In this document: positions 1-59,116 of the stretch, piece after piece
Position numbering within the stretch: position 1 is the first letter of the stretch
Layout: each line of letters opens with the position of its first letter
Program-made: the position numbers and the translations under genes
The notes under the pieces: generated by a model
Told to the model about the DNA's origin: nothing
The model's database searches: none
The model's input: only the letters and a program-made list of their open reading frames with translations
IMG/VR virus record: IMGVR_UViG_3300034066_001346
Location: 32,798 to 96,797 of that record
Origin: a virus
Strand: one strand, 5' to 3'
DNA: 64,000 nt

Positions 1-1107
1 CAACTTGTTAAATGCAGCCTTTACAGACTTAAGTGTTGCTGCATTATCTGCAGTCAACTTAGCGATCTGTGCATCTTTAGCAGCAAGTGCTGCATCAGAA
101 GCGACCTTTGCATCAGCAATAGCCTTGGCAGAAGCAGCTTTTTCAGCAGTAAGAGCCGCAGCAGATGCTGCCTTCTCTGTTGCTAGTGCAGCAGCAGCAT
201 CAGCGTTAGCCTTTACAACTGCAGCATCTGAAATTGCCTTTGCAGCAAGTGCTGCATCCTTAGCTGCAGTCTGTGCAGCAAGTTCTGATACTAGATCACG
301 AACTGCGATTTCTGCAAATGGTGCTAGCGTACGAGCAGGAAGACCAACTACATCTGCAGTTGTTGCCTGACCAGCAGTTGTTGGAGCAAACGTAATAAGT
401 GTGCGTGATCCAGTTGTAGGAAGAGTTACTTTAAACTCAGCCACACCAAAGTCAGAGAGTGCGCTACCTAGTAGTGCCGTTGCTGAATCAAGTGTTCCTG
501 TTGCAGCAAATACTGTTGCGGTAATTGTTTTTGTAACACCATCAACTGCAGCACCAGAAACCTTGTTTCCAAATACATCTACAGCAGCAACTGTAATTGT
601 TTGCTTTGTACCTGCAGCACCTGATGCTGGAGCAGTTACTGTTAGGTTGTTGATCTTACCAGCAGTTCCCTGTACATAGTATGTAAGAGTTGTTCCACCG
701 TTGTTGATTACAACTGTGCCAATTGCTGTTGTCTTTGTATAGACATAGAATGTTGCAGTTGTTCCTGTACCAGTTGCAATGCTTAGGCTTGAAGAGCCTG
801 ATGCCGATGTTACTGGTGCAGCGGTTGTGTGTAGTGCAGACACGATTGTTGCGTTTGTTGTTACTACAGAAACGACTGTTCCTGTGTCAACTGTTGCGAC
901 GAACCTAAGTGCGTCAGCAGCGTCAACTGTGTTGTCTGCTGGGACTGGCAATGATGCAGGTGTTGCGATTGCTGAGGCAGTTGTGTTAGCCGTTCCAGCG
1001 AGATCGACAGCGACTGTCATTACAGCAGCACTTGCAGGTGTTGCTACGATTGTGCCCAAAGTCATGGCTGCAACCATGGCTAGTGCGATTTTCTTAAATG
1101 AGTTCAT
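1..1107 (-). CDS. Exported Ala/Thr-rich surface (S-layer-like) protein with C-terminal coiled coil, 3' end outside window
   Basis: Not in the ORF track because it runs off the edge. Hand translation from ATG at 1107 gives MNSFKKIALAMVAAMTLGTIVATPASA|AVMTVAV..., then a beta-rich body (DVFGNKV motif) and ...AAKDAQIAKLTADNAATLKSVKAAFNKL. It is open for 369 codons, has an AAGGAG RBS and a Sec signal peptide ending A-S-A. Confidence 0.85.
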   Translation of the reverse strand, partial: MNSFKKIALAMVAAMTLGTIVATPASAAVMTVAVDLAGTANTTASAIATPASLPVPADNTVDAADALRFVATVDTGTVVSVVTTNATIVSALHTTAAPVTSASGSSSLSIATGTGTTATFYVYTKTTAIGTVVINNGGTTLTYYVQGTAGKINNLTVTAPASGAAGTKQTITVAAVDVFGNKVSGAAVDGVTKTITATVFAATGTLDSATALLGSALSDFGVAEFKVTLPTTGSRTLITFAPTTAGQATTADVVGLPARTLAPFAEIAVRDLVSELAAQTAAKDAALAAKAISDAAVVKANADAAAALATEKAASAAALTAEKAASAKAIADAKVASDAALAAKDAQIAKLTADNAATLKSVKAAFNKL

Positions 1108-1154
1108 TTAATTTATTCTCCTTATTTCCTCTGCCTCTTCATGAGAACAGAAAT

Positions 1155-1325
1155 TTAGTTTTGATCTAATAGTTTTACATGAAAGCTGCATGGATCAAAT
1201 CCAGCTTCCCATTCATCTGCTTCTTCATCTGTCATTGGAGCACCTTCATGTGTATCACAAAAGACATCTGAGATCCATTTTTTTTCATATCCAACTAGAA
1301 GCCATGCTTCAAAGTCTAGATCCAT
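1155..1325 (-). CDS. Small hypothetical protein (56 aa)
   Basis: Hand-translated MDLDFEAWLLVGYEKKWISDVFCDTHEGAPMTDEEADEWEAGFDPCSFHVKLLDQN. Overlaps the thioredoxin stop and fills the gap. Confidence 0.7.
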   Translation of the reverse strand: MDLDFEAWLLVGYEKKWISDVFCDTHEGAPMTDEEADEWEAGFDPCSFHVKLLDQN

Positions 1326-1618
1326 TTGGACAACTCCTCAACAAGTACATGCTTTGGTTTTGCTCCAATTATAGTTTTTACTGGTTTACCGCTTTCAAAT
1401 AATACCATAGTTGGTATTGATGTTACTGAGAATTCGGCAGTTTTTATTGGATTTTCATCAACATTTAACTTTGCAACCCATAAATTATTTTCTGATGATA
1501 TTTCATCTAATATGGGTGAAAGCTTTTTACAGGGACCACACCATTCAGCCCAAAAATCAACCAAAACAATCTTGTGTGAATTTATCGTGTCTTCAAATGT
1601 GGTATCTGTAATGTTCAT
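1316..1618 (-). CDS. trxA: Thioredoxin
   Basis: VDFWAEWCGPC active site and SIPT cis-Pro motif. Confidence 0.95.
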   Translation of the reverse strand: MNITDTTFEDTINSHKIVLVDFWAEWCGPCKKLSPILDEISSENNLWVAKLNVDENPIKTAEFSVTSIPTMVLFESGKPVKTIIGAKPKHVLVEELSKWI

Positions 1619-1824
1619 TAACTATCCTTTAGTTGATCTGCTGCTTCATTAAATTTAAACATAAATGTCTGAATTACCCAAATAGCTGTTTCTCCAGCAT
1701 TTTTAGCCATAGCCTTCGAAGCCTCTTCGGTTCTATCTTCAATAGCAAGACCATTGTACCATTTTTGGTATAGTTCTTCACCAATATCTTTAATGATTCC
1801 TTCTAAAACTGTAGTCTTATCCAT
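1618..1824 (-). CDS. Hypothetical protein
   Basis: ORF coupled to both neighbours by overlapping stop/start. Confidence 0.7.
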   Translation of the reverse strand: MDKTTVLEGIIKDIGEELYQKWYNGLAIEDRTEEASKAMAKNAGETAIWVIQTFMFKFNEAADQLKDS

Positions 1825-2746
1825 TAATTGCCGCCTGCAAGTTAATAATCTTATTCACAGATCCGCTATATGTTTTTGCTACAGATGCAGTTGATTTGAG
1901 CAAAGACAAGTACTGAGTGTATGATAGTCCTGGCTTTGACTGCTTAAGTGCTACCCAGTTGGCTGCCGCAATTTGAGTAGAGATAGAAGTTCCAACTCCA
2001 TATCCTGTCGATCCACCTGGATAAATAACCTTGGCTGATCCTGGTGCAAAGAAACTGAGAAGAGATGTGTCATCATTTGAATAAAATTCAGCCTCAGACT
2101 GTGTGCTTACTGCGCCAACAGATATTGCGTTTGGAACACATGAAGGCCAGTCAACCCTCTTCTTGTCTCCATTATTTCCAGAGGCAAAAAATGGTGCTAT
2201 TCCAGCAGCAACCATGCTAGCCAAAGACTTAGTAACAACAGAATTATTCGGGCAGTAATTTGCTCCAGATAAAAGGTTATGGTGTCCTTGTGCCATGGCA
2301 ACCGCTTGAATATTAAACCTATCCTTATTTTCGATTACCCAATTTAGTGCTGCGGCTATTTCTGATGGACCAGTTGTCTGTCTTTGTCCAAAAATAGAGT
2401 TACCAATAATTCTTACAAAAACGATCTGCATGTTGGGGTTTGCTTCTAAAGCAACAGAAGCCATTTGTGTTCCATGATTAAAGTTTCTGCTACTCATGAT
2501 ATTCATTGGAAGAGATGCAGAGCCTGGGCCCTCCATAAATGCTTTTCCATTAGGACATGTCATCCACTTAATTATACATACTTCGTGTGCAATCTTTCCT
2601 TGAAAAGCTGGAATTGATGAATCAAGTGCCGTATCCAAAATTGCAATTGTTGGAACGGCAGTCGTTGAAGACTTGAGCGCAGCATGTGATGCTGTTGGGA
2701 TAAGCACTATCAATGATGTTAGTGCAATTATTAGTTTTTTGTTCAT
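1817..2746 (-). CDS. Secreted subtilisin-like (S8) serine protease
   Basis: Signal peptide; catalytic motifs AILDT, HGTQMAS and GTS; oxyanion ASGNNG; AISVGA. Confidence 0.9.
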   Translation of the reverse strand: MNKKLIIALTSLIVLIPTASHAALKSSTTAVPTIAILDTALDSSIPAFQGKIAHEVCIIKWMTCPNGKAFMEGPGSASLPMNIMSSRNFNHGTQMASVALEANPNMQIVFVRIIGNSIFGQRQTTGPSEIAAALNWVIENKDRFNIQAVAMAQGHHNLLSGANYCPNNSVVTKSLASMVAAGIAPFFASGNNGDKKRVDWPSCVPNAISVGAVSTQSEAEFYSNDDTSLLSFFAPGSAKVIYPGGSTGYGVGTSISTQIAAANWVALKQSKPGLSYTQYLSLLKSTASVAKTYSGSVNKIINLQAAING

Positions 2747-2752
2747 GGCTTT

Positions 2753-2781
2753 ATTCTACTAAAATGCCACTGGTATGTCAA
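2753..2781 (-). promoter_or_regulatory. Sigma70-type promoter, leaderless, for the S8 protease
   Basis: TTGACA-17 nt-TAGAAT, then 6 nt to ATG; no SD. Confidence 0.7.
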
Positions 2782-2785
2782 TACC

Positions 2786-2947
2786 CTAGTCTACCTTCTT
2801 TTTATACCACTTTCCAGCATCCATATCTGGAACTGTTACCTGATTTTGATTTAATAACATTTCTATTGCTGTAAGTGCATACTCCATTTGGAATTGTGTA
2901 CGCAAAAGCTCCATCTCAAGGAGTCTTAGTCTTTCTGATTTTCTCAT
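2786..2947 (-). CDS. Small hypothetical protein (53 aa)
   Basis: Hand-translated MRKSERLRLLEMELLRTQFQMEY...GKWYKKKVD; TAATG coupling with the upstream gene. Confidence 0.6.
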   Translation of the reverse strand: MRKSERLRLLEMELLRTQFQMEYALTAIEMLLNQNQVTVPDMDAGKWYKKKVD

Positions 2948-3258
2948 TATTCCATATTCTCTCTATCAACTAATGTTGGTGCAGTAGCAATATTACCACA
3001 TGATGCACACAACATATCTAAGAAATAGGTAGCTATCTCATAGTTTTCAAAAACTGTCTTAACGTACCATATATTAGATCCACATACACATATGTGTGTT
3101 GGTGTACCTCGTAAATCTAATGCTGTTGGCTCTGGCTCTTCTTGTGCCAACTCTTCTTTATCAAATATCAAAACTTCATATTTATCTAAAAAGTTTCTAG
3201 CAGCAGATGCCGATACTAAGCTTAGTATTAGAATAGATAATCTATTAAGCATCTTCAT
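2947..3258 (-). CDS. Hypothetical protein, N-terminal hydrophobic segment plus Zn-ribbon
   Basis: CVCG...CASCG motif and hydrophobic N-terminus. Confidence 0.7.
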   Translation of the reverse strand: MKMLNRLSILILSLVSASAARNFLDKYEVLIFDKEELAQEEPEPTALDLRGTPTHICVCGSNIWYVKTVFENYEIATYFLDMLCASCGNIATAPTLVDRENME

Positions 3259-3273
3259 ATAATTAATTATACT

Positions 3274-3828
3274 CTAAACCTGAATATATGTAAAGGGTGG
3301 TGCTACTGACATTGAGAATTCTGACGCCGCTTCTAAAGCTAATTTTAATCTCATCTTGGGATTCTTTTGATTCTTTGTTGCATGAAGGGCTCCAAGGGCA
3401 AACATTCCGCCTGAGCCTTCAGCCATATAATTAACTACATTCTCACCAACATGGAAATCTTCATCTACAACAAAGATTCTTCCCTCTAGGCCTACTATAA
3501 AGATGCCACCAGTATCTTCATCTGTTCCGCCTATATCTCCAAAGCCGTGATCTTTAAATGCCGCTTTAACAGAATCAATAAACTTAGTTCTCATAAACTT
3601 ATCTAAGCCTGAGTTAGTCTTTGTTGGAGTATACTTTGGTGGTGTCCATGAGTATTGAAGGATCTGCCCCATGCGAAAGCTATCAGTAAATGCAATACCG
3701 TACTGTCCAACCTTAAAGCACTTTGGCTCTTTTCTAGACATCACCCATCCACTTTTATCATCAGATGCGGCATGGTCGGAACCCATGTAGACGGTTCCAT
3801 TTTGAGCTATAGCAACAATACAGGTCAT
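3274..3828 (-). CDS. HslV/proteasome-beta-like Ntn protease
   Basis: MTCIVA start (Thr1 nucleophile), GSD, K33-equivalent and GSGGMFALGAL motif. Confidence 0.85.
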   Translation of the reverse strand: MTCIVAIAQNGTVYMGSDHAASDDKSGWVMSRKEPKCFKVGQYGIAFTDSFRMGQILQYSWTPPKYTPTKTNSGLDKFMRTKFIDSVKAAFKDHGFGDIGGTDEDTGGIFIVGLEGRIFVVDEDFHVGENVVNYMAEGSGGMFALGALHATKNQKNPKMRLKLALEAASEFSMSVAPPFTYIQV

Positions 3829-4199: not shown

Positions 4200-4436
4200 T
4201 TAAACTAATAATTCAGAAGCAGATATGTCATTACCAATGTATCTTTTTTTGACTATAAATTCTCTAACATATTCTGATCCAAATTGTCTTCCAGACAAAA
4301 TTACAACCCATCTTGGTTCAAACTTAGATGTTATGCATGTCTCACAAACAAGCAAATTTATAGGCAATAGGCTAGACTTTCTTAAATTCAACTTATTTTT
4401 ATTCTTATTGCATGAATAGCATAAAATTTTTTCCAT
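4200..4436 (-). CDS. Hypothetical Zn-binding protein
   Basis: CYSC...CETC; coupled ORF. Confidence 0.7.
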   Translation of the reverse strand: MEKILCYSCNKNKNKLNLRKSSLLPINLLVCETCITSKFEPRWVVILSGRQFGSEYVREFIVKKRYIGNDISASELLV

Positions 4437-4633
4437 TAATTTTCTTCCTCAATGTGCTCAAAAACTATTTCATCTACGATAACGAAATCTTCGTTCTCTA
4501 AAAGTGCTTCGTGCTCTATTTCATCTTTCTTATACCTGACTATTGAGGCAAATGCACCTAGCTTATCTATAGTGCCAAATACCCCCTCTTCGTTTAGGAA
4601 TACAACAACTACCCTATCATAGTACTCTTTCAC
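4436..4633 (-). CDS. Hypothetical protein
   Basis: Coupled ORF in operon. Confidence 0.65.
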   Translation of the reverse strand: MKEYYDRVVVVFLNEEGVFGTIDKLGAFASIVRYKKDEIEHEALLENEDFVIVDEIVFEHIEEEN

Positions 4634-4934
4634 TTGGTGCCCCCTCTAGCTCGCATCTTACTCCATATGACTCTATCAACCTTTTTACCTTGTTGACATA
4701 ATCAATAACCATTTCTTTCTTAGTACCTTCATACTGTAAAAAATTGTCTTCATAAAGTCTTATTGCTAGAAAATCGGGATACATTACTATGTCCATTAAT
4801 AAATCAAAAACTGGCTTATTGATTTCTCTAACCCTTTGAGCCATTTCTTTTGTATAGAACACTGGCTTATTTGGCTCACCGTTCCACTGATTAATTCCGT
4901 GCTTAAAATGATTTTTGTCTTTATCAATAAACAT
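4617..4934 (-). CDS. Hypothetical protein
   Basis: Coupled ORF directly downstream of whiB. Confidence 0.7.
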   Translation of the reverse strand: MFIDKDKNHFKHGINQWNGEPNKPVFYTKEMAQRVREINKPVFDLLMDIVMYPDFLAIRLYEDNFLQYEGTKKEMVIDYVNKVKRLIESYGVRCELEGAPSERVL

Positions 4935-11691: not shown

Positions 11692-11710
11692 AGCCCCCTC
11701 ATTTATTAAG

Positions 11711-11783
11711 TGCCCTTGGCAGGAGTCGAACCTGCGGCCAGTCGGGTAGAAACCGAATGCTCTGTCCTCTGAGCTACAAAGGC
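11711..11783 (-). tRNA. tRNA-Arg(TCT)
   Basis: Acceptor stem GCCTTTG/CAAGGGC, anticodon loop TT-TCT-AC, T-loop GTTCGAC; no encoded CCA. Confidence 0.92.
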
Positions 11784-29952: not shown

Positions 29953-29972
29953 TTCCGCCGTTTTCTATTATG

Positions 29973-30045
29973 TACCAAAGGTGGGATTCGAACCCACGCT
30001 GTATAGATTTTAAGTCTACCGCCTCTACCGCTGGGCTACTCTGGC
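29973..30045 (-). tRNA. tRNA-Leu(TAA), short variable arm
   Basis: Acceptor stem GCCAGAG/CTTTGGT plus discriminator A, anticodon loop CT-TAA-AA, T-loop GTTCGAA; 73 nt. Confidence 0.9.
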
Positions 30046-46745: not shown

Positions 46746-47213
46746 TTAAACCTCTTCCAGAGATAAAGACACATTCCAATGAGGTTGTATACCACGCTTT
46801 ACAATTGTAAAAGTTGCTTCTGTACATGAAACATTATATTCTTCATAACCAGATGACTCTTGGCTTGTTCCAGTCTTTGCCATATTTACTCTTATTTTAA
46901 AGGTTCCCGTTCCGCCATTTTTATAAAATTCTCTTAAATCTTCTGCTCCCCATGCACCATCAACGGTTAAAGTTCTATATGAAGGAAGCATTTCCCAACT
47001 TAGATTAAATGATTTCTTATCTGCAACATGGTACTTTCTTAAAGTACCATTTGACATTCTTCTTTTAGATTCAATTCTTTGTGTTCCAATTGTAAATTCT
47101 GATCTATTGTGCTCTGTAACTTTGTTCCAAGCTAATGAAGTTCCAGCTGGAGTTGCTAATAAATCTTTAGCTTCAATTAATAATATTGAGCCTCTTGGCA
47201 TCATCATGCTCAT
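46746..47213 (-). CDS. Distal tail protein-like
   Basis: Immediately after the TMP; RRMSNGTLR...WNVSLSLEEV. Confidence 0.65.
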   Translation of the reverse strand: MSMMMPRGSILLIEAKDLLATPAGTSLAWNKVTEHNRSEFTIGTQRIESKRRMSNGTLRKYHVADKKSFNLSWEMLPSYRTLTVDGAWGAEDLREFYKNGGTGTFKIRVNMAKTGTSQESSGYEEYNVSCTEATFTIVKRGIQPHWNVSLSLEEV

Positions 47214-50200
47214 ACTGTAATTCCTCCACCAGTCATGCTCTGTCTTCTTGCTCCACGGGCATCCATTATATTAACTATATGGTTTGCAAGCTCTTTAACA
47301 TCTTGTCCCTGTGCGCCATTAACAACAATTCCTCCAGCATTATAGTGGTGAATTGATCCACCTTTATTATACCCTGGAACTTGATTGCTAGCAATACCTA
47401 CCGTGCTTGTTGGAATGTTATATGTAGGAGAAGCCATTCCTCCGTTGGCAAATCCTGGTATAGACATTTTTGGATTAAATGAGGTGTTTACAATTCCCCC
47501 ATTGGCAAATTTAGGAATTTGTATTTTGCCATTGTTAACAAATCCCCCGCCTGCTGCTTCTTCCACATTTTTTAGCTGTTCTTTGATATCAGAAATTATT
47601 GACATAAAATCTTTTTCAGATAAAGCTCCCCTAGCATATAGACCTACAGCTGATTTTTGAACTGCTAAAAGATCTTTTTCATCTGCATAAGTTTTTCCAC
47701 TTGTATATTTGCCAAAACGTGTAAACATTAAAAGTGCGCCTAAAGCTTTTTGCGTATCACTTATTCCAACACCTATATCTCCTGTTTGAGCTCTTTGTGC
47801 ATTTAAAATATATTCAAATGGGTTGTGTCCTGAGCCATGAGCTAAGTTGTCTATGTCGCTAGCATTATGTCCGCCATCAAACCTGACTCCAAGATTCGCA
47901 GCCATTTCTGCTATCTCTTCTTTGTTTAAAGAGCTAAATTCTCCTCTAACGGCATACCTGTATTTTTCATCTATTCCAATTTGTTTCTTTGCTTTATCTA
48001 TTGCTAGTATTTGCAAAATTCTTGAAGCGCTTAAATACTCATCAGATTCATAATTGCTTCGTGCTGGCATGTAAAATTCTTCTGAGTGACTACCTCCCAT
48101 AGCATTGTCTGTACGTGCTATAGGTTTTAAATTACCATTTTCGTTAACTGCTTGTAATATTTGAGCAAGCTCTGATTGAGAATATTTTTCTTTTGCTAAA
48201 TAAAATATTTCTTTTGCTGAAAAATCTTCTGCAATTATTGGAGGTTCTTCTCCATCTTTATACAAATTAAGTTCTTTTAATTTTGCTATATAATCAGATT
48301 CTTCAAGTGGAAAGCCTGAGCTTAGCTCTCCTTCTTTTTTACTGTAGTGAAAAGGCTTTCCAAATCTTTGCAAGAAATAACTGTCTACTGAATGAAGCTG
48401 TTCTGGTTTTCCATTGTACTTCATTAAATTAGAAAGTGTGCTTACTATAAATGGTCTATCTGGCTTCCATTCACCCTGCATATGTGACTGAACTGCGTCA
48501 TAAATTCCAAAGTGTCTTGATGTTCTAGCTGCGGCTAATTGTTCTAGAGTGCCGACAGTTCCTTCAGGGAGGCCTTTTGGACCAAAAAATCTAGAAAGTA
48601 TGTGGGTCGCTGCATCTTTTTCAAAAAGATCTCCCTTGCCATCTGTTGATGGGAAATCGTCATTAAATATTCTTATCATAGGAATATCTCTTGGTGTTAA
48701 AGGAGTGTAAGAAGGATCCCAGCCTCTTGCTTTCAGGTCTGCAATTTCTTTTTTAGTTAAAGGCTTTTCTCCACGCACCCCATGCAAGCCACCTCTTGGG
48801 CCGCCTTGTCGTGCAATATTGGCAGCTACCGCTTCTTGTTGTAGTCTGACATTTTCTATATATTCCTGAACCATTTTTGTAAGTAGTGGTGAAATTGCTT
48901 TTGTTTTAGTTTTAATAGCAACATCATCTCTTGTATTGCCACGCATTGCAGAAATTAATTGTGCAAGCCCTGCTGGATCTAGTGACTCTGAAAGCTCTGG
49001 CCTTCTAAGGCCAAAAAGATGTGGGGATGCTAAATCTTGTGGATCAACCTTTTTTAAATTTATGCTACCTGATGCTAGCATATTCATTAAAAATTCTTTT
49101 ACTTCTCTATCGCCCCATTGGTATCCTGAATCCATTTTATCTAATAATCTTCTAGCTTTTGTATGGTTTGGATCTTTTTTCAAAATATAGGATAGGATTC
49201 CTTCTGGTGTTGTAGGAATAATATCAGTTACCTGATGGCTTGCTAATAATGAGCTTAAATTTTCAGTACGACCTTGAAAAACAACTGCGTCATTTCCAAA
49301 ACCGCTTCCTGAATGCACTGGTACATTTTTCCCTTCATGAATTACAAATGGCGGGTAAACGTTATTTGGCTTAAAATCATCTGAAGAAATTTTTACTTGT
49401 GGTTTTTGAATCATTGAAGATATTTTATTTTCGGCAAATGGTCTTGATGCGCCGATGATTGCTGCAGTTATAGCATTAGATGTAAATTTTGGAACTGCTG
49501 ATGTTGCATATGGTATAGAACCCTTTGGAAGAAGAGAGCCTAATCCAGGAAGTCCTTTTGACAATCCATATCCTTCAGCTAGTCCTCTTATCGAAGCGTT
49601 TCCAGCTGCTGCTGGCAATAAGAATGAACCAAAATCTAATCCAACTTGTGCAGCAATTTCTGGAAGTACAGACTTAACTCCTTGTTGTTTTATTTTTTCT
49701 TGTTGTGATTTTAATCCTTCTATGTTTGTAGAAGCAATTGGGTTTGTACCAGTAAAGGCTGCTTGTACTCTGTCTAAAGATAATATTGCTGGAAATAAAA
49801 AGTTGTCATAAATTTTTTGAGCAACAGATTTTGGAGCTTTATAATTACTTGCCATGTGTCCAGCAGGCAAACGTCTGCGGCCTGATCTTCTACCTGATGA
49901 AGATTCCATTTTTTGTTTTAGGGCAGCTGATACAGAGCCCATTGATGACATTCCTAAACTATGTGGGGCGCCTGAATGAGTATGTCCTACTGGTCCGCCA
50001 GCATGGAACATTAGCGGTCCTAAACCGTAAGCACCATTGCCAATGCCACCCGTAGAGGCGCCAGAGCCTGCAAGACGCATAGGGTCTCTGTCTATGCCCA
50101 TTCCTGGGCTTGCAAATGGCTTGCGTGGCTGCTCAAGCATCTGATGCATGTAGTCTGAATGCTGTGGGACCGAACCGCTAAATTTAAGTCCTGGTATTTC

Positions 50201-53200
50201 TGTTCCGCCCCAAATATCCATGCCTGGGCTGCGTGGCCCAATAAATCTTGAAAGTTCTCCCCAATATTGACCGAAAGGATTACCTATAGGTCTTCCAGAT
50301 CTAGAGTAAGGAACACCTGGCTTTCTTTGTCTTGGTACTGTTAGTGGCCCCTTAATCCAATTTCCAGAATCAGTTAAGCTGTTTACAACTTTTCCACCTT
50401 CTGCAAACTTCTTTATGTTTACCTTTGTGCCTGCAAAAATTCTTGACCCGCCCATATATTTTGGATCATTTAGCTGTGGATTCATTTCCATTAATTGCTT
50501 GACGCTAATACCATACTTTGCAGCAATTGCAGATAATGTATCTCCTCTGCCTACTGTGTATCTATCATTTTCATAATCTGACTTAGCATCATCTGCGCTG
50601 TAATATTCTGGTGTGCCATATCCATACTTAATAGTATCTACTGGCTTATATGAAGGTCTTCCAAATCCTACAACTGGAGCATTCTTCATATTGTATTGTC
50701 TTACTTTTGCATGTACTCCGCCGCCGCTTCTTTGACTTCCAGAACCTGATGTATTTCCTTCTATAGTTGAAACTGCATTGCTACTTAAAACATTTCTTAC
50801 TAACCCTACGTGAGAAATTCTATTAACGCCATCTCCTGGGAAATCCATGAAAGCTAGATCTCCACGCTTTGGATTCATCTTTGTCCACTTGCCACTCTTC
50901 ATAAATGACTGAGCTCCACCAGGAGTCCAAATCATGCTTGCTAAATCTACCCCAGCATTTTTTGCTGCCCAATTTATGAATGCTCCGCACCATGCTATGT
51001 ATCTGCTCTGCAGATCATAAGCCTTTTGTGCAAATCTACCAAATATAGTGTCGTTGTTCTTTCCTTCTTTATATCCAAGCATAGACTCAGCTGCTTTAAT
51101 CATTGAGTCTACTGTGCCTAGAGTGCTTTCTTTTCCGCCTCTCATCTTACTTACTTTTCCGCCATTTGCAAATCTACCAGCATTTAAATCATGAAGGAAT
51201 GATGGACCAAATTCTTTTTCAGCTTTTTTAACTGAGTCTGCTTTTATTACCCACTCACCGTCTGAAAGCATTGCAGGAATTGAATCAGATGTTGAAGTTC
51301 CTGGACCACTTACATTTCCTCCGCCATCATAATTAGTTGCATAGCCGCCCATAGCAAGTTTTCGGGCTCTTGATGGGAATATCTTTGCATCATATCCAGA
51401 CTCAACAACATATTTAACTCCATCAACTTCAAAATATTTACCCTTTTGATATTTATTTGTATTAATAATATATGTCAGCCCTGCTTTAGTTATTGTTCCA
51501 TCTTTAGACTTTAGTGGTGCTGCTTCTGCGGCAGTTGTTCCCCCTGGTGCAACTTTAGGAAGAGTTGCGGCGTTAACCTTAAATGGATCCTCTTTTGTTC
51601 CACTTCCAGTTCCTGATGTCGCTCCAGCAAATTTATCTACTGCAAGAATAAACTTATCTACAGCTGATGCAAATGCTACATTTTTATTATCATTTACTGC
51701 CTTTGCTAAAGCCTGTGCAAGCTGAAGTTCTGGAGACATAGCAACTGGCTTGCCACCAGCTTGTGAAGGAGGCTGGTTAATTGCAGGATAGTTGCTAAGC
51801 ATTTCATCTGCAGCTTTTTTAATTGATCCGCCAGCTTCTCTCATTTCATTAAAGATTTGAATTAGAAGCTTTTCGTCTGACTTAGAGAAGTTGCCCCCTG
51901 GATTTCTTGTTACAATATCATTTATTCTTGCTCTAAAGTCAGCAATAGTGGCAAGGTCTGCAGACTTTTTAGCAGCTGCTGAGCCTGCTGTGGCGTTATT
52001 GTCTGCTGCATCATCTATTATTTTTTGCAATCTTTCAATTTCTTTATTTTGTTGCTCAATGCGCTTTTCATAATCATTTGTAATTGATTCTCTTGTAATC
52101 TGTCTTTGTCTATCTTCTTGCAATTTCTTTATGTTAAGTTGAGATTGAGCAGCAGCAGCAAGATCACCAGCAGCCAAGAACTCCTGATATCTTATCTGCT
52201 CTTCCTTTAAAGATTTAGCAAAGTCGGCTTCAGCCTGCTGAACATCCAAAAGCTTTAATCTAGTATTTCTTTCTTTTTCTAACTGATTTATAACCTTCTG
52301 GATTGACTTTATTTTATCCTTGTAATAATCGGCATCAAACTTTGCAGCAGCCTTTTGAGCCTTAATTGCATTTTCAGAGGCTTTCTTTGCTGCATCATAA
52401 AGTTTTGCTAAAGCAGAGAGGGGGTTATTTGAATCTGTTGATGAAGTTACTTCATTTAAAGCACCTTGGTATGCAGCAAGTTGTCTGGCAAATTCTACAG
52501 CTTCCTTTCCAGTCATAGCTGCAATATTTATTTTATCTGCTAAACCAGCTGCGTATATCGCTGTTTTTGCATAAATACTTTGAAGGGTTTCTCCATTTTT
52601 TAATATAGTTGCATAAACTAAATTTTGTTGTTTAAGACCATCTAAAGTCTTTTTATCTATTTCATTTGTTGCGCCTTTTATTTTTCCTATTTCATCCAGG
52701 GTCTGCTTAAGTGCATCAGCTTCTGTTAATTCTGTTTTACCATCTTCTCCGCCTTTTGATCCAACCAAAGAATCTTGGTAGGTAGAAAGAACATTAATCA
52801 TATTCTCTACACCAGTATTTAGCTCTTCTAAGAATCCCTTACTTGTGCTACCGTTCATTGCTACTATTGCATTTGAAACCATTTTAACTGATGCTGCGGC
52901 AGCAGATGCTCTGTCTGTAATTTGTTTAAATGAATCAGAAGATATTGCTGAAACTGACTGACCTGATTTATTTGATGCAGCAATTAAAGCATAAATTTTA
53001 TTTGTTGCTTGTTGCACAGACATTCCCATAGATACATATTGAGACTTAAGCGATGTAGCTAATTGATTAACCTTAGATGAATCTATATTATTAAACGCTG
53101 CTAAAGTTTCTGGCATTTCTTTTTTAACTCTAGCAGTTTCTTCTCTTAATTCTTTAATTGTAAAAGTTAATCCACTTATACCAGTTTTTGTATTTGAGTC

Positions 53201-56200
53201 ATACGATGCACTTGCTTTAGCACGCTGCAAATCTAGCTGAGCATTTATATCTTTTAATCTAGTAGATAGGTCTTTGTACTTTCCAGAAAGACCCGCCTCT
53301 CCTAAAGTTTTTTCATTAGCTCCAAATGCTAGTCTATTTGCCTTACCAGCATCTTCATACTTTTTCTTTAGATCTAATAATACTTTTCCTAAAGCTATTG
53401 CAGATGTTACTGCTAATCCAAACCCAGCAAACTTCATAACTTTTGATAATGTAAGTGTTCCTTTTATTAAAAATGGCAAAATTGATGCTACTTGTCCTAA
53501 CATAGAGCCAATCATAAAGCCCGTGTTTCCACCCATAGCTTGTCCAGCCACTCCTCCGCCAACTGCTGTTGCCATGCTAAATACTTGAGCTTTAGCTCCG
53601 TATGGATTTATCCCTGACGAACCTTTTGTTATTGGAGTCATTCCCATTTGAGTTGCTAAAGGGGTTTCGTATCCAGGCATAGTAGGAATAGCAGGAAGTC
53701 CATATCCTGTTCTGTTCTTAACAATATCTCCGCCTGGAATTATTCCGCCTGAATTTCTAGGAACAAATATTTCTGGTCCGTTTTCTCCAACAAGGTAAGG
53801 TCTGTTTGCATTAACTGGACCACCCATGGCACGTGTACCGTCAACAACTGTTTCTAATTTCAATGTTCCATTTTCATATCCAACTACTCTAAACTTTCCA
53901 CCAAAAATAGATTCTTGTTCGGATCTTGAGTTATGTCCAGCTACCTTTTGTCCAAATGGCGCTGAGAATTTTGCATCTGGGAATATGTCAGAAGCTGGAA
54001 CAACATTTCTATTTTTTACAGATGCCTCTATAAGTATTGATGACCCATCTGCGGATGCTCCGTGTCCTGGCGCAAATAGGGAAGCAATATCTCTATTTTT
54101 ACTCCATGATGAACGGCGCATAATAAATTCTTGACCAATAAGTCCAGATGGATCTCCACTTAATCTTGCCTGATCAATTGCCTCTATAATATTTTGAGGA
54201 AGAGGGTTTGCTCTATTTTTGCTTAGTTTTAATCCTCTATAAAGAGTTCCGCTAAACTTTCTAGACAACTTCTTCATTAATTCTGTAGCGCCTGGAGTCT
54301 GTAATATTCCATAGTTACCAGCCATGTATTGACGAAGTATATACTTCCCACGCTCTTCTTCAGATCCAATTGGGAACTGTCGCATAACATTTTGTCTTGC
54401 GAATCTATCGTCTTGATAAATTACTTCTCTTGTCCACTCATAATCATCTTGTCTATCTTTTGGAACCATGGTTCTACCAATTTGAAGTGGACCATGAAGT
54501 GGATCTTGATTTCCTAATGTGTATTGATACCCTGGCATTCTAAAGCGTTCTTGTGGCTTCCACCTTGCAGTTAATCTGGCAATTGCACTAGATGCTAATG
54601 ATGGAACTCCATAGCCGTATCTTCCTCTTTGTATATTGCCTCCTGGAATCATTCCTCCAAGATTTGCAGCAAACGGTGTGGCTGATGAATTTCTGGAGAA
54701 TCTGGTCATTGCTCCAATTTCTGCAGAGTTTACTAGTTGTCCCCACATGGCTTCATTCATTAAGCCATTTCTTCTTTCTACGAGAGCATTTAGTCTGCTA
54801 GCTGCGAGCTCTGCAACTTGTTGTGCTTGAGCCTCTGGAACACCAATATCTTTTAGTTTTCCTAAAAGACTTTGCATGTCTTGCCAGCCTACTTCTCTCC
54901 ATGAATCTTTCCAGCCTTTTCCATCTGAAGTTCTTGCTGGAGATCCGTCGCCCTTAATTCTTTGATTAAATTTTGAAGTGTTTTTTACCCATGTCGTTGA
55001 CAATGCAGTAAGTGTTGATAATTTACTGCCTTGAGGTACTGATACGCCTAAAGATCTTAATACTGATACTGGAATCTGATCTTCTGGACCGTACCCTAAA
55101 GATTCAAGTCTTCTTACAAATGCAGGAGGAAAAGCATGAACTAATACATCTCCCCTTTTTGTTGGAGTAATTCCATATCTCTTATTAGTCTCATCAGAAT
55201 AAATTGCACTAGATCTTGAACGTGCTGAAGAATATTGTATAGAACCTGATCCTGGCTCTGAAACAGATTGTGTATTAGAACCAGTTGTATCCCATCTATT
55301 TCTGCTAGCTCTCCAGTATCTTGTTCCTGGAGATCTACCTCCTCCTATCATGGAAGATCTAGCTAAATAGTTGGCGATTAAAGATGCTGGATTTAGACCG
55401 TAGTTCTTTTTATTTCTAGATACATCTCCACCGAATGCGTATCCATTATTAGCTGCGTCAACTGCAGCATACAGTTCTGGATCTCTATGTATACCTGGGC
55501 CAAAAATAGTTTCTTTTGGAGTTAGCATAGCCTTCATTGTAGATCCGCTATTACTAAATGTTGAAGGTGCAGCATCTACTAAATCTTTATTGCGTGGATC
55601 TAGCGAAGCTTGTTGATTTAAAACATATCCGTTTAACGGAACATTTCCAAACCTATCGTCATAGTTAATAGATGACGGACCTGATACTACTGTCTTATTT
55701 GGCCCAAAGCTCTCAATGTCTCCACCGACATTAAATCTTTTTGGTCTTGTTGTTTCAATACTATAAGGAGCACCATATGTTTTAACTCCAAGCACTCTGG
55801 CAATGGAATTAAATAATGTTCTTGTTCTTCCTGGACGAGTAAGCTCTTTCATGTTTGCCTTACCAGTAACAGGATCAAACGCTGGTTGGTCTACGAGGGG
55901 TAGCTGTGTTAAGTTTATTGTTCTTCCTTGTGCAGTAGCAACTTCTGTTGCTGCCTGCCCCATCATCATTTCAATCTGTCTATTTAAAGCAACAACTCTT
56001 GCTCTTGCTTGATCAACAGTTATTTTTGATGCTTGCAGCTGTGCAACAATTTCAGCAGATTCTGTTGCAGCTAAAGTTGTTATTCTTGACATTTGAGGAA
56101 GAAGGGCTTGATATGAATCTGATAATGAAGTTGTAATTAATCCAGTTGCTGCAACTTCACGCTTTAGTAAAGCAATTTCTGCTTCCGACTGCATTGCAAG

Positions 56201-58447
56201 TGCGCCAGTCATTGCGTGCCACTTTGCTGCTTCTCCTGCAACTATTCCAGTAGAAACACCCTTTATTGCAGATACTCCAGCAACCTTTGGCAGGTCTGAG
56301 CTCATGTACATCTGCGGATTATTGCTAATCGCATTGTTTACTTTAGGTGCTCCTGGAACAATTCCAAATATAGTCTGGGCTTCTCTTTCAGCTGGGGTCA
56401 TAGCTGAAACAGGATTTGGGTGAGAATAAGCTCTTGTATCCCTTGGAGAGATGTATCTACTTGTAGGATCTACTTCTCTTATAGCTGTGCCAGTCATAAC
56501 AACTTGACCAGCAACAGTTGAAATTGTAGGAGCTGCGCTTACGCCAGAATTTGCTCTTGCCTGCAATATTCTAAATTCTTCATTTAAGTTATGTAGTGCT
56601 GTAGATAAAACCGTAGCTGCTTTTGCATCACTATAGAATGTTGTTTCTAATAGGTTACCAGCTTTGTTGGCAGCTAAAATTTCTGGAGTTAATAATTTCC
56701 ATCCTTCTCCGCCTTTAAATAACGCTCTAAAGTGTGCAGCACCTTTAACAACATACCCAAGGAAGTTTGCAAGCACACCAGTTAACATAATTATTGGGCC
56801 AGTTAATGCTGTAAATCCTGCCGCAAATGTTAATAGTTTTTTGATTGGGTCTGGCAGCTTGTTAGCAAATTGAACTACCTTGTCGATAATATTTATAAAA
56901 AATGTTCCGATGTTTAAGAACTGCTCTCCTACTCCAGCTAAGCTGGCCTTTAAAGATTCTAGCGCTCTCTTATATTTACCAGATGCAGACTCTGTAATCT
57001 GAGTTAATTCTCGGTTAGCAATATTGGCTAAATCTTGTGTACTAGTTTTCATTAAGTCTAGTACTTGTAATGTCTGACTTCCTTCTTTACCTAAGTTTTC
57101 AAATAAGGCAGATAGTCTTGCAAACTGAAATTTTCCAAAAAGCTGCTCAATCGCCTTTGATTTACTTAATGGGTCAAGTTTGTCTAGAGCAGATTGAAGC
57201 TCTAACATCATTCCAGTTAAATTGCCAGCATTTGAAGTAACTATATTTTCAAGATCTATTCCAAATCCTTGGAACATTTCTTTAGCTACCTTGGTTGGGT
57301 TAATAAGGGATGCTAATGAGGACTTGATTGCATTTGCACCTTCAGATGCATTTACTCCGCCCTCTTTCATTGCAGTTAAATATAATGCTAAATCTTGGAC
57401 TGATCCGCCAAGACTTTGAATTACTGGTCCTGCTTTTGGAATCGCTTCTACTAAATCTGCAAGAGATGTGGATGTCTGGTTTTCAACTGCGTTTAAAAAG
57501 TTAATTGATTCAGAAAGTTCTGTTGTATTTTGCTTAAAAGCTGTCTGAATTGCAAGTGTGGCTTTCATTGCTTCTTGCCTATCAACTTCACCAAGTATGG
57601 AAAGTCTTGTAGTTTCTTGAGTTGATCTGATTAGATCATCTCCCTGCTTTCCTGTTGCAGCAATATCCGCAGCTAGTGCGATTGTTTCTTTGTAAGAAGC
57701 TCCGTAAGCAGCTGCTAATTCTCTTGCTGTGGCAGAAACTTCTTTTCTTACTTTTGCTAACTCTGTTGCAGAAGTTTGTGCTACCCCACCATAAACTTTT
57801 GTTAATCTTACAAGTTGCTCGTCTGCTTCTCTAAATGCTTTTGATGCAGCAATCCCAAAAGCTGTTATTGGTACGGTTAGTCCTACAGTTAACTGGCGTC
57901 CTGCCCACTGAGTATTTTTACCCCAGTTAATTAGTTGGACTCCGCCATCTTGAATAACTTTATTAAATATCTGCATCTCTTGCTTGAGAAGAGCTGTTCT
58001 ATTTTTAGTAGCATCCAGACCTCTTGGTATCTGAACGTTAAACTGCATTAAGCCTTCGGCATTTCTACCTAGGGGCTGAAGTATTGCATTTTGTAATTGA
58101 ACTTGCTGTCTTGCTAACTCCCTAATCATTCCACCAGAAGTTCTAGTGTGATCTTGGAATGTTCTATAGTAATCTTTAAGCTTAAGTCTTCCCTGATCTA
58201 AGTTTTTACCAAATTTTTCTACATCAGAAGAAAGACTTACGAAGTGGGTTGAGAACTGACCAGTGCTTCTAAGTGTTGCTGAAAAGCCTTGCTGTATCTT
58301 TGCTGCATCCATCGCAAGTGCTTTGTTCGTTGTTGCTAAAGCACCTTTTAATTGAGCGAGCTCTGCCGTAGCCTTTTGCACATTAGCAATAAGACTTGAG
58401 AAATTAGCATTAGCTACTATATTCGTAACTATTGTCTCATTGGCCAT
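47210..58447 (-). CDS. Tape measure protein with embedded ADP-ribosyltransferase, CHAP and LysM domains
   Basis: TP901-type TMP core in the N-terminal ~600 aa, downstream of the chaperones. ART motifs LYRG/SSWS/SEQE; CHAP WCG/SHVG/EGNT; LysM YTVGRGDTLSAIA. Confidence 0.92.
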   Translation of the reverse strand: MANETIVTNIVANANFSSLIANVQKATAELAQLKGALATTNKALAMDAAKIQQGFSATLRSTGQFSTHFVSLSSDVEKFGKNLDQGRLKLKDYYRTFQDHTRTSGGMIRELARQQVQLQNAILQPLGRNAEGLMQFNVQIPRGLDATKNRTALLKQEMQIFNKVIQDGGVQLINWGKNTQWAGRQLTVGLTVPITAFGIAASKAFREADEQLVRLTKVYGGVAQTSATELAKVRKEVSATARELAAAYGASYKETIALAADIAATGKQGDDLIRSTQETTRLSILGEVDRQEAMKATLAIQTAFKQNTTELSESINFLNAVENQTSTSLADLVEAIPKAGPVIQSLGGSVQDLALYLTAMKEGGVNASEGANAIKSSLASLINPTKVAKEMFQGFGIDLENIVTSNAGNLTGMMLELQSALDKLDPLSKSKAIEQLFGKFQFARLSALFENLGKEGSQTLQVLDLMKTSTQDLANIANRELTQITESASGKYKRALESLKASLAGVGEQFLNIGTFFINIIDKVVQFANKLPDPIKKLLTFAAGFTALTGPIIMLTGVLANFLGYVVKGAAHFRALFKGGEGWKLLTPEILAANKAGNLLETTFYSDAKAATVLSTALHNLNEEFRILQARANSGVSAAPTISTVAGQVVMTGTAIREVDPTSRYISPRDTRAYSHPNPVSAMTPAEREAQTIFGIVPGAPKVNNAISNNPQMYMSSDLPKVAGVSAIKGVSTGIVAGEAAKWHAMTGALAMQSEAEIALLKREVAATGLITTSLSDSYQALLPQMSRITTLAATESAEIVAQLQASKITVDQARARVVALNRQIEMMMGQAATEVATAQGRTINLTQLPLVDQPAFDPVTGKANMKELTRPGRTRTLFNSIARVLGVKTYGAPYSIETTRPKRFNVGGDIESFGPNKTVVSGPSSINYDDRFGNVPLNGYVLNQQASLDPRNKDLVDAAPSTFSNSGSTMKAMLTPKETIFGPGIHRDPELYAAVDAANNGYAFGGDVSRNKKNYGLNPASLIANYLARSSMIGGGRSPGTRYWRASRNRWDTTGSNTQSVSEPGSGSIQYSSARSRSSAIYSDETNKRYGITPTKRGDVLVHAFPPAFVRRLESLGYGPEDQIPVSVLRSLGVSVPQGSKLSTLTALSTTWVKNTSKFNQRIKGDGSPARTSDGKGWKDSWREVGWQDMQSLLGKLKDIGVPEAQAQQVAELAASRLNALVERRNGLMNEAMWGQLVNSAEIGAMTRFSRNSSATPFAANLGGMIPGGNIQRGRYGYGVPSLASSAIARLTARWKPQERFRMPGYQYTLGNQDPLHGPLQIGRTMVPKDRQDDYEWTREVIYQDDRFARQNVMRQFPIGSEEERGKYILRQYMAGNYGILQTPGATELMKKLSRKFSGTLYRGLKLSKNRANPLPQNIIEAIDQARLSGDPSGLIGQEFIMRRSSWSKNRDIASLFAPGHGASADGSSILIEASVKNRNVVPASDIFPDAKFSAPFGQKVAGHNSRSEQESIFGGKFRVVGYENGTLKLETVVDGTRAMGGPVNANRPYLVGENGPEIFVPRNSGGIIPGGDIVKNRTGYGLPAIPTMPGYETPLATQMGMTPITKGSSGINPYGAKAQVFSMATAVGGGVAGQAMGGNTGFMIGSMLGQVASILPFLIKGTLTLSKVMKFAGFGLAVTSAIALGKVLLDLKKKYEDAGKANRLAFGANEKTLGEAGLSGKYKDLSTRLKDINAQLDLQRAKASASYDSNTKTGISGLTFTIKELREETARVKKEMPETLAAFNNIDSSKVNQLATSLKSQYVSMGMSVQQATNKIYALIAASNKSGQSVSAISSDSFKQITDRASAAAASVKMVSNAIVAMNGSTSKGFLEELNTGVENMINVLSTYQDSLVGSKGGEDGKTELTEADALKQTLDEIGKIKGATNEIDKKTLDGLKQQNLVYATILKNGETLQSIYAKTAIYAAGLADKINIAAMTGKEAVEFARQLAAYQGALNEVTSSTDSNNPLSALAKLYDAAKKASENAIKAQKAAAKFDADYYKDKIKSIQKVINQLEKERNTRLKLLDVQQAEADFAKSLKEEQIRYQEFLAAGDLAAAAQSQLNIKKLQEDRQRQITRESITNDYEKRIEQQNKEIERLQKIIDDAADNNATAGSAAAKKSADLATIADFRARINDIVTRNPGGNFSKSDEKLLIQIFNEMREAGGSIKKAADEMLSNYPAINQPPSQAGGKPVAMSPELQLAQALAKAVNDNKNVAFASAVDKFILAVDKFAGATSGTGSGTKEDPFKVNAATLPKVAPGGTTAAEAAPLKSKDGTITKAGLTYIINTNKYQKGKYFEVDGVKYVVESGYDAKIFPSRARKLAMGGYATNYDGGGNVSGPGTSTSDSIPAMLSDGEWVIKADSVKKAEKEFGPSFLHDLNAGRFANGGKVSKMRGGKESTLGTVDSMIKAAESMLGYKEGKNNDTIFGRFAQKAYDLQSRYIAWCGAFINWAAKNAGVDLASMIWTPGGAQSFMKSGKWTKMNPKRGDLAFMDFPGDGVNRISHVGLVRNVLSSNAVSTIEGNTSGSGSQRSGGGVHAKVRQYNMKNAPVVGFGRPSYKPVDTIKYGYGTPEYYSADDAKSDYENDRYTVGRGDTLSAIAAKYGISVKQLMEMNPQLNDPKYMGGSRIFAGTKVNIKKFAEGGKVVNSLTDSGNWIKGPLTVPRQRKPGVPYSRSGRPIGNPFGQYWGELSRFIGPRSPGMDIWGGTEIPGLKFSGSVPQHSDYMHQMLEQPRKPFASPGMGIDRDPMRLAGSGASTGGIGNGAYGLGPLMFHAGGPVGHTHSGAPHSLGMSSMGSVSAALKQKMESSSGRRSGRRRLPAGHMASNYKAPKSVAQKIYDNFLFPAILSLDRVQAAFTGTNPIASTNIEGLKSQQEKIKQQGVKSVLPEIAAQVGLDFGSFLLPAAAGNASIRGLAEGYGLSKGLPGLGSLLPKGSIPYATSAVPKFTSNAITAAIIGASRPFAENKISSMIQKPQVKISSDDFKPNNVYPPFVIHEGKNVPVHSGSGFGNDAVVFQGRTENLSSLLASHQVTDIIPTTPEGILSYILKKDPNHTKARRLLDKMDSGYQWGDREVKEFLMNMLASGSINLKKVDPQDLASPHLFGLRRPELSESLDPAGLAQLISAMRGNTRDDVAIKTKTKAISPLLTKMVQEYIENVRLQQEAVAANIARQGGPRGGLHGVRGEKPLTKKEIADLKARGWDPSYTPLTPRDIPMIRIFNDDFPSTDGKGDLFEKDAATHILSRFFGPKGLPEGTVGTLEQLAAARTSRHFGIYDAVQSHMQGEWKPDRPFIVSTLSNLMKYNGKPEQLHSVDSYFLQRFGKPFHYSKKEGELSSGFPLEESDYIAKLKELNLYKDGEEPPIIAEDFSAKEIFYLAKEKYSQSELAQILQAVNENGNLKPIARTDNAMGGSHSEEFYMPARSNYESDEYLSASRILQILAIDKAKKQIGIDEKYRYAVRGEFSSLNKEEIAEMAANLGVRFDGGHNASDIDNLAHGSGHNPFEYILNAQRAQTGDIGVGISDTQKALGALLMFTRFGKYTSGKTYADEKDLLAVQKSAVGLYARGALSEKDFMSIISDIKEQLKNVEEAAGGGFVNNGKIQIPKFANGGIVNTSFNPKMSIPGFANGGMASPTYNIPTSTVGIASNQVPGYNKGGSIHHYNAGGIVVNGAQGQDVKELANHIVNIMDARGARRQSMTGGGITV

Positions 58448-58457
58448 ATATTATATG

Positions 58458-58826
58458 TTACCCCACTTCGTATCCCAAACCTGCTCCGATTCCAAATCCA
58501 TTCTCTGCGGCAATTGATCCTTGTAGTGAAACAACATCGTCACCACTTGCATTTATTCCTAGAGCTCTTCTTTGAATATCTTCAAAAGTTGGGCCTTCTT
58601 TTTCTTCTTCGGATTCAAGGTTGATGCCTTGAAGTCCTGCTAAGAATTTTCTTTCTTTTTCTTCTTTCTTATTCATTGATTGCAAGGTTTGAATAAGTTC
58701 TGGCATTGAAAGGTTTTCTTCTAGCTGCTCATAGTTTTTCCAATGACCTAGAAGAAAAACCTCTCCAAGTAAAGCGGCTAAATCTAGTTCTGACCAGCCA
58801 GAACCGCTGCCGCTAGAAGGTTTGGG
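58458..58826 (-). CDS. Tail assembly chaperone, -1 frameshift extension (gpGT-like)
   Basis: The -1 frame is open from the slippery site through SSGSGSGWSELDLAALLGEVFLLGHWKNYEQLEENLSMPEL to the stop at 58458. Confidence 0.8.
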   Translation of the reverse strand, partial: PKPSSGSGSGWSELDLAALLGEVFLLGHWKNYEQLEENLSMPELIQTLQSMNKKEEKERKFLAGLQGINLESEEEKEGPTFEDIQRRALGINASGDDVVSLQGSIAAENGFGIGAGLGYEVG

Positions 58827-59116
58827 TCATCCATCTTTATCCCACCACATACTTCTAGAATACGATTAATTGTAGGAACATCTAATGCATCTTCTAGTGC
58901 ATCTCTATCTGCTACCAACTCTGGTAACTGCTTTTCTAATGCTACTGCACATGCATCAATAAGGATGTCTAATGTCTCATCTTCTGATGTTGTATTTGCT
59001 GTTTTTTGAATAGCGATCATAAACTTGCGAAGCTCTTTAATTGTTAAAGGCTTTAGCTTTACGGTTGCGCCATTTTGTAGTTGAATTTCTTCTACGTCAT
59101 AGATTGTAGTTGCCAA
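58784..59116 (-). CDS. Tail assembly chaperone (gpG-like)
   Basis: Between the major tail protein and the TMP; AGGAGG RBS with TTG start. Confidence 0.85.
   Translation of the reverse strand: MATTIYDVEEIQLQNGATVKLKPLTIKELRKFMIAIQKTANTTSEDETLDILIDACAVALEKQLPELVADRDALEDALDVPTINRILEVCGGIKMDDPNLLAAAVLAGQN
58820..58826 (-). other. Programmed -1 frameshift slippery heptamer C CCA AAC
   Basis: X XXY YYZ heptamer in the correct phase; the -1 frame has a TGA immediately before it and is open after it. Confidence 0.8.

Follow-up and report, generated by a model that had tools for sequence, protein, structure and literature searches.

A predicted R-S-E ADP-ribosyltransferase module carried as exchangeable cargo inside an uncultured phage's tape measure protein

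The only enzymes that tape measure proteins (TMPs) carry are, to our knowledge, directed at the cell wall; the TMPs of mycobacteriophages contain Rpf-like and peptidase motifs, and Pb2 of T5 has a muralytic domain. The carriage of phage ADP-ribosyltransferases (ARTs) in the virion is an established strategy (PMC9503650, PMC5512222). Alt of T4 travels within the virion and does its work before the phage genes are expressed (PMC9503650; bioRxiv 10.1101/2021.06.04.446905), and ARTs fused to MuF, portal or minor capsid proteins, including the MuF-VIP2 proteins of Microbacterium phages, have been described along with polyvalent proteins (PMC9503650, PMC5512222, PMC7302621). The NAD/ADP-ribose toolkit has, however, been reported to be scarce in long-tailed phages with non-contractile tails (PMC9503650). 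Here we describe a stretch of 64,000 nucleotides (the window), which is the last 64 kb of the 96,797-bp linear IMG/VR virus record IMGVR_UViG_3300034066_001346, a record estimated to be 81% complete. A single very long open reading frame (ORF) on its minus strand encodes a TMP, in the middle of which lies a segment with the predicted fold and the motifs of an R-S-E class mono-ART. We consider it probable, at roughly 60%, that this segment (residues ~1310-1549) is a catalytically competent enzyme and that it forms an exchangeable cargo of the TMP which is delivered at entry.

A preliminary description of the sequence had picked out the motifs TLYRG, RSSWS, RSEQES and GKFRVV together with a helical QYM.G.Y segment, and had read them as an R-S-E class ART embedded in the TMP. 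All of these were present where they had been reported and in the TMP frame (Table 1), and the assignment was borne out by the predicted structure, by the invariance of the key residues and by the register of an alignment with ModB, which are described in turn below. A template-free AlphaFold2 (AF2) model of residues 1310-1549, made from an alignment of 44 homologues reaching down to 41% identity (A2), had a predicted local distance difference test (pLDDT) score of 82.6 and a predicted template modelling (pTM) score of 0.77. A Foldseek comparison of the segment, which had been proposed as a check, returned a predicted ART fold: all of the PDB matches listed were ARTs, nearly all with the R-S-E triad, the best being Vis (E 8.6e-5), and the others included HopU1, C2-I, Tre1, CDTa, C3bot, Certhrax, iota toxin Ia, ExoS and the SidE mART, as well as XopAI, an effector with the ART fold. 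Alignment with VIA gave the same picture, in that the top 50 entries were all ARTs, with Z scores of 8-9.2 for the top 40. The top VIA matches, which also included Vis, Tre1 and ExoS, had ~130-150 aligned residues within model residues 52-226, with a root mean square deviation of ~3 Å in most, and the overlap coincided exactly with the catalytic domains of the known enzymes (Ia 234-413, CDTa 240-420 and C3 67-245). Among viral structures in BFVD the best fold matches were phage ARTs, and in many of these the fusion partner was a portal, MuF or minor capsid protein. The nearest named clusters in the ESM Atlas carried PF03496, PF26816 (Mod) and PF01129, which we treat as a lead only. In the model R1404 is located on strand 87-98, S-x-S ends strand 131-140, ahead of a helix, and E-x-E opens strand 203-216 after a long loop. 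This order of strands, bearing R, then S-x-S, then E-x-E, is the canonical R-S-E topology of C3 and of Ia. The module is probably related, at some distance, to the C3, VIP2, ExoS, Tre1 and T4 Alt/Mod enzymes. The ART fold is always preceded by a beta sub-domain with the motif N-x-D-P-x-H-G-x-L-x-I-G, which belongs to the same conserved unit.

Within the 44-sequence alignment R1404, S1447, E1510 and E1512 were invariant. The arginine motif and E-x-E were also present in all 76 of a further set of ART-bearing TMPs, and the serine pattern MR[RT][SA]S[WF][ST] was found in 75 of these, the exception, MDDASWS, keeping S-W-S. The middle residue of E-x-E was free in this set (Q, E, K, H, R, S or N), and the lengths of the loops around the catalytic motifs differed among homologues, with the loop before E-x-E being both long and variable. 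Conservation of the catalytic residues in combination with variable loops indicates that selection has acted on catalysis and not on bulk. Sequence kinship to a known family was examined by hhalign, using A2 and eight T4-type ModA/ModB sequences. The alignment (E 1.7e-4, probability 49.6%) had the three motifs in register, with LYRG on LYRG (R73 of ModB), SSWS on SFS (S99), and E-Q-E on the invariant E171-x-E173 of the Mod proteins. The R73A mutant of ModB is catalytically dead (bioRxiv 10.1101/2021.06.04.446905). With single ModA or ModB sequences hhalign gave probabilities below 2%, which is not significant, and at the level of sequence the kinship to the T4 Mod family is best regarded as borderline.

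The ART domain proved to be confined to giant TMPs of uncultured phages. Searched exhaustively with HMMER, a set of 1.84 billion representative proteins yielded 46 relatives of the module; nearly all of these were TMP-sized proteins or fragments cut by the end of a contig, with the domain typically at residue ~1200-1600, and for none of the 46 could a complete, free-standing ART be demonstrated. When free-standing forms of 116-441 aa were sought with a profile, the outcome was one protein of 399 aa, of uncertain completeness, and three short fragments. In IMG/VR the domain was encoded in 53 loci, in open frames with a median of 2,500 aa, and the order hydrophobic region, ART, hydrophobic region recurred in most full-length homologues. 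The conserved backbone of the ART-bearing TMPs corresponds to residues 1-1000 and 1250-2450.

When TMP residues 600-1000 were used as the query, 920 related giant TMPs were recovered. The best 120 of these included 76 with the ART and 44 with other sequence in the same slot, and the ART profile matched none of the latter, even with the E value relaxed to 10. One ART-less protein (P0062) was 84% identical to the window's TMP over residues 1-1017, but the sequence following this N-terminal block was unrelated as far as the second hydrophobic segment and the region around the GGPV/VGExGPE motif. A FastTree phylogeny was built from residues 1-1,000, with a midpoint root and with all of the 121 rows retained, and on it the presence of the ART required at least 8 changes, compared to a mean of 36 when the labels were shuffled, and well-supported branches forced all 8. 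The module is therefore optional and has been swapped repeatedly, and so behaves as a cargo and not as part of the TMP core.

Features of the slot itself were examined at both of its edges. The module is flanked by near-identical linkers of ~20 residues (LGGMIPGGNIQRGRYGYGVP upstream and SGGIIPGGDIVKNRTGYGLP downstream), which might serve as joints for recombination, as hinges or as sites of cleavage; the TMP has some 20 GG-x-[IVLM] motifs along its length, and the exact double-linker form was found in just a few homologues. The GGPV...VGExGPE motif that closes the module also follows the alternative cargo in ART-less relatives. The alternative contents fell into size classes of ~760, 380-650 and 330 aa, and most of them shared a module of ~140 residues (A4; positions 4245-4754 of locus L075) with the motifs AGFGPTG...APWGV.SLSI...EKPYGYVK...LSPID.DIL. 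One ART-bearing contig shared the N-terminal part of an alternative slot, and in this contig the ART replaces just the 140-residue module. This module had no Pfam match, and its AF2 model, which was helical and of low confidence (pLDDT 63.5), had no Foldseek match in the PDB; it may be another effector. A broader proposal can be put forward tentatively, and with less than an even chance of being right. About two thirds of the nearest relatives have the R-S-E ART and the rest have other modules, and on this proposal the middle of the TMP would serve as a polymorphic effector bay, with Gly-Gly linkers as its bounds and a membrane-inserting region on either side. Its exchangeable effectors, pre-made and meant for the cytoplasm, would travel unfolded in the tail lumen, pass through the membrane together with the TMP and refold so as to act before phage gene expression.

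How a domain in this position might act can be set out as a sequence of steps. The TMP would be held in the tail lumen and would exit before the DNA does, and its hydrophobic regions would insert in the cytoplasmic membrane. The ART segment would then reach the NAD+-containing cytoplasm and fold or refold there, possibly after cleavage at the linkers, and would ADP-ribosylate at least one host protein before phage gene expression begins. Such early modification might favour takeover of the host or weaken a defence, in the way that head-borne Alt acts for T4. Since an ART needs NAD+, it can work only in a cytoplasm, either that of the next host after ejection or that of the producer cell before assembly. 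Delivery is favoured by the fusion of the ART at a constant site in a protein that would exit the tail before the DNA, by its behaviour as a swappable cargo, by the precedent of virion-borne ARTs and by labelling of the lambda TMP, which is the phage protein labelled during injection by TurboID-ManZ, on the cytoplasmic side of ManYZ (PMC13190303). The preliminary description had likewise proposed delivery at entry, with RNA polymerase, translation or defence proteins as targets, and a cytoplasmic location of the ART as opposed to a cell-wall location of the CHAP/LysM domains; these are plausible inferences, and the argument from the placement of CHAP/LysM applies to a few members of the family only.

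A number of observations weigh against this interpretation. At the level of sequence, the ART segment had no Pfam or PHROG match; PF03496 (ADPrib_exo_Tox) had no match at its gathering threshold in the whole 96.8-kb record and was touched by only 3 of the 44 homologues (best E 0.066), and neither phmmer nor a profile search with the segment found anything meaningful among PDB sequences. At the level of structure, the template modelling (TM) scores against known ARTs were modest (0.3-0.5), a Z score of ~9 is just above the range that the VIA tool calls common, and that R, S and E meet at an NAD cleft is an assumption made from superposing the model on the NAD-bound structures of Ia, Vis and C3. 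Physically, a domain of 22 kDa present in at least three copies must either fit or unfold in the narrow tail lumen, where the copies are probably unfolded or metastable, and the C-terminus of the TMP is expected to emerge first, which complicates the final topology of a module in mid-protein. Finally, the module had no match in 50,697 isolated phage records (blastn, tblastn), and 185,579 species genomes scanned by pattern had no relative either, so that no prophage or host clue emerged. Searches of the 96.8-kb record for the hydrolase families ARH, Macro and NADAR had no matches, which we consider neutral.

If the enzyme is active, it could in principle act at the other end of the infection cycle, late in the producer cell and as part of unassembled TMP, modifying host or phage proteins or itself, so as to shut down host functions or aid tail assembly, its presence in the virion being incidental. 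The TMP is a late protein made in an NAD+-rich cytoplasm, in which a folded ART would already be active; the ARTs of T4 modify themselves and act on many proteins (bioRxiv 10.1101/2021.06.04.446905), and the lack of any immunity or hydrolase gene found in the record would be tolerable in a cell about to lyse. For an enzyme acting at this stage, however, fusion at a constant slot flanked by two membrane-type segments would serve no purpose, nor would such an enzyme be expected to be swapped with other modules in the way that cargo is; moreover, the known phage ARTs, late or early, whose action takes place within the infected cell (ModA, ModB) are free proteins. We regard a late role as unlikely.

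Slightly less probable again is an ART-fold enzyme with a substrate other than arginine in a host protein, such as DNA or RNA, a small molecule, the attachment of NAD-capped RNA, or NAD+ itself by hydrolysis. The R-S-E fold is common to relatives that modify nucleic acids or have NADase activity; pierisin, ScARP and DarT, for example, modify DNA or RNA. ModB can also transfer NAD-capped RNA (bioRxiv 10.1101/2021.06.04.446905), and the extra conserved N-terminal beta sub-domain with its N-x-DP-x-HG motif and the long variable loop before E-x-E might point in the same direction. Indications to the contrary come from the specificity motif and from the nearest structures (Vis, HopU1, Tre1, Ia and ExoS), which modify arginines or other protein residues. 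In the ADP-ribosylating turn-turn (ARTT) loop E-x-E goes with arginine specificity, and the guanine-specific relatives have Q-x-E. By this rule the invariance of the first glutamate suggests arginine specificity, and the predicted ART is probably arginine-specific.

Because the length of a TMP sets the length of the tail, any globular insert might be selectable as bulk, and the segment could then be a structural relic with the shape of an ART, acting as a spacer or plug in the tail lumen without catalysis; indeed binary toxins have an ART-like domain at the N-terminus that is inactive, and such domains were among the structural matches (6x6w, 6x41). Inactive ART domains, however, lose their catalytic residues, whereas here the three motifs are invariant in at least 120 sequences down to ~35-41% identity while the surroundings and the loop lengths vary, which makes a relic very improbable. 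Finally, the absence of database sequence matches to the segment could mean that there is no ART at all and that the three motifs co-occur by chance in a very long protein with an artefactual fold prediction, an idea that we discount almost completely since R, S-x-S and E-x-E are invariant in the 44 aligned sequences and kept in 76 of 76 others, the in-register profile alignment with the Mod family contradicts it, and a confident template-free model gave only ARTs as top matches with two aligners and two libraries.

The identification of the carrier as a TMP was supported by Pfam, by PHROG matches and by gene position. Nearly all ORFs of the window are on the minus strand, as is the TMP gene. 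TMP PHROGs matched residues 1-835 (best phrog_10030, E 3.6e-122), homologues were labelled as TP901-family TMPs by the source databases, and the only Pfam domains detected in the protein were PhageMin_Tail, CHAP and LysM. The gene is followed on its 3' side by genes for a minor tail protein (phrog_10359) and a tail protein (phrog_9983), and on its 5' side lie two small ORFs and a gene for a protein with an immunoglobulin (Ig) domain. The small ORFs (58458-58706 and 58784-59116, minus strand, in different frames) are directly 5' of the TMP gene, in the position of tail assembly chaperones of the G/GT type, and they matched only PHROGs of unknown function. The N-terminal third of the TMP and the adjoining minor tail protein were 23-34% identical to those of the ~130-kb Streptomyces BE-type siphophages, and the synteny of the tail genes was also like that of these phages. 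Elsewhere in the window, two tRNA genes, Arg(TCT) and Leu(TAA), were found at 11710-11783 and 29972-30045, respectively, on the minus strand.

Hydrophobic regions were called by the Kyte-Doolittle method (window 19, score of at least 1.5). The arrangement given in the preliminary description, with the ART between two such regions of the TMP and CHAP/LysM beyond the second, was confirmed (Table 1), and the first region was at a roughly constant position in nearly all homologues. The CHAP and LysM domains occurred in only ~5 of 47 homologues, and the C-terminal part (residues 2800-3650) likewise in a handful. This part (~2800-3650, 47500-50050) and another stretch at ~1020-1250 (54700-55390) had no Pfam match and were common to 1-7 of the 47; both are likely to be further variable cargo. 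Several homologues had unusual arrangements: P0044 (4,210 aa) contained eight tandem stretches matching only module residues 106-169, P0047 had repeats of module residues 182-236, P0058 had an OmpA-type domain (PF00691) where others have CHAP/LysM, and P0005 and P0010 had second ART-like matches that were non-significant. In the window's TMP (P0001) a second copy of the ART was not found by hmmsearch at E values up to 100. A plus-strand ORF of 102 aa (53826-54134) runs antisense to the ART coding region and is most probably spurious, as the frame on the minus strand is strongly conserved.

Table 1. Coordinates in the window of the tape measure protein gene and of the domains, motifs and predicted catalytic residues within it.
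Feature	TMP residues	Position	Strand	Basis or remarks
TMP gene (P0001)	1-3,745	47210-58447	minus	one ORF, 3,745 aa
PhageMin_Tail core	239-438	57134-57733	minus	Pfam PF10145, E 1.8e-26
First hydrophobic region	537-570	56738-56839	minus	Kyte-Doolittle
Upstream Gly-Gly linker LGGMIPGGNIQRGRYGYGVP	1263-1283	54599-54661	minus	near-repeat of downstream linker
Conserved ART module (P0002)	1310-1549	53801-54520	minus	~240 residues, in TMP frame
N-terminal beta sub-domain (hairpins)	model residues 1-50	54370-54520	minus	invariant N-x-D-P-x-H-G-x-L-x-I-G
ART fold core	1361-1535 (model residues 52-226)	53843-54367	minus	structural matches
QYMAGNY		54311-54331	minus	helical in AF2 model
TLYRG		54233-54247	minus	predicted catalytic Arg R1404 at 54236-54238
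RSSWS		54101-54115	minus	S-x-S = S1447-W-S1449 at 54101-54109
RSEQES		53909-53926	minus	E-x-E = E1510-Q-E1512 at 53912-53920
GKFRVV		53882-53899	minus	TMP frame
GGPV...PYLVGENGPE motif closing the module	1540-1565	53753-53830	minus	TMP PHROGs match 1512-1573
Downstream Gly-Gly linker SGGIIPGGDIVKNRTGYGLP	1566-1586	53690-53752	minus	near-repeat of upstream linker
Second hydrophobic region, Gly-rich	1643-1693	53369-53521	minus	Kyte-Doolittle
CHAP peptidoglycan hydrolase domain	2484-2565	50753-50998	minus	Pfam; endolysin PHROGs
LysM peptidoglycan-binding domain	2630-2678	50414-50560	minus	Pfam

Virion-borne phage ARTs being already known, what we rate as new is the use of the TMP as the carrier instead of the head. 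The word "tape" occurs in neither of the surveys of ARTs and polyvalent proteins (PMC9503650, PMC5512222), and full-text searches of the literature gave no description of an ART within a TMP. If an NAD+-dependent enzyme does reside in a TMP, part of that protein would have to reach the cytoplasm and fold there, which would bear on the role of the TMP at the inner membrane, and siphophages would gain a route to takeover of the host or counter-defence before gene expression. The proposed effector bay, if real, would be the siphophage counterpart of the polymorphic toxins of type VI secretion system (T6SS) and Rhs systems and of the head-borne Alt of T4. In terms of annotation, this is a large family of TMPs without any mention of an ART, the sources naming them only as "TP901 family tape measure", and since the module escapes Pfam its description would fill a gap; the pattern of swapping also flags further cargo modules that are worth study.

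Comparison with bacterial toxins and effectors shows both how close the module is in predicted fold and how far it has diverged. C3, Ia, CDTa, C2-I/VIP2, Certhrax, Vis, HopU1, ExoS/ExoT and Tre1 of Serratia share the predicted fold and have R, S-x-S and E-x-E in the same order on equivalent elements of secondary structure. Identity to them is only 10-19%, however, and the TMP module differs by an additional beta sub-domain at its N-terminus, which has an invariant motif of its own, and by the greater length of the loop that precedes E-x-E. The toxin and effector ARTs are secreted or injected by bacterial systems, whereas this one is embedded in the middle of a TMP. The polymorphic toxins and Rhs/T6SS effectors, such as Tre1, likewise combine a conserved delivery scaffold with variable cargo; in those systems the cargo is C-terminal, whereas in the TMP it is internal, the scaffold is a phage tail protein and no immunity gene was found.

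Among phage proteins, Alt, ModA and ModB of T4 are R-S-ExE ARTs, as is the predicted arginine-type module of the TMP. Alt, however, is a separate protein inside the head and ModA and ModB are free early proteins, whereas here the enzyme would be an in-frame domain, and its carrier is the tape measure of a long-tailed phage of the non-contractile type. The fusions of ARTs to MuF, portal and minor capsid proteins are similar in that the ART is on a structural protein of the virion that enters with the genome, and differ in that the carrier is a head protein and not a TMP. The ARTs of polyvalent proteins, which are combined with MPTase and similar domains, are of the H-Y-D type (PMC5512222), whereas the TMP module is of the R-S-E type. 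Lastly, TMPs with embedded cell-wall enzymes, of which the window's own protein with its CHAP and LysM domains is an example, already show the TMP as a vehicle for an enzyme that acts at entry; their substrate, peptidoglycan, is outside the membrane and they need no cofactor, whereas an ART needs NAD+, which would imply exposure to the cytoplasm.

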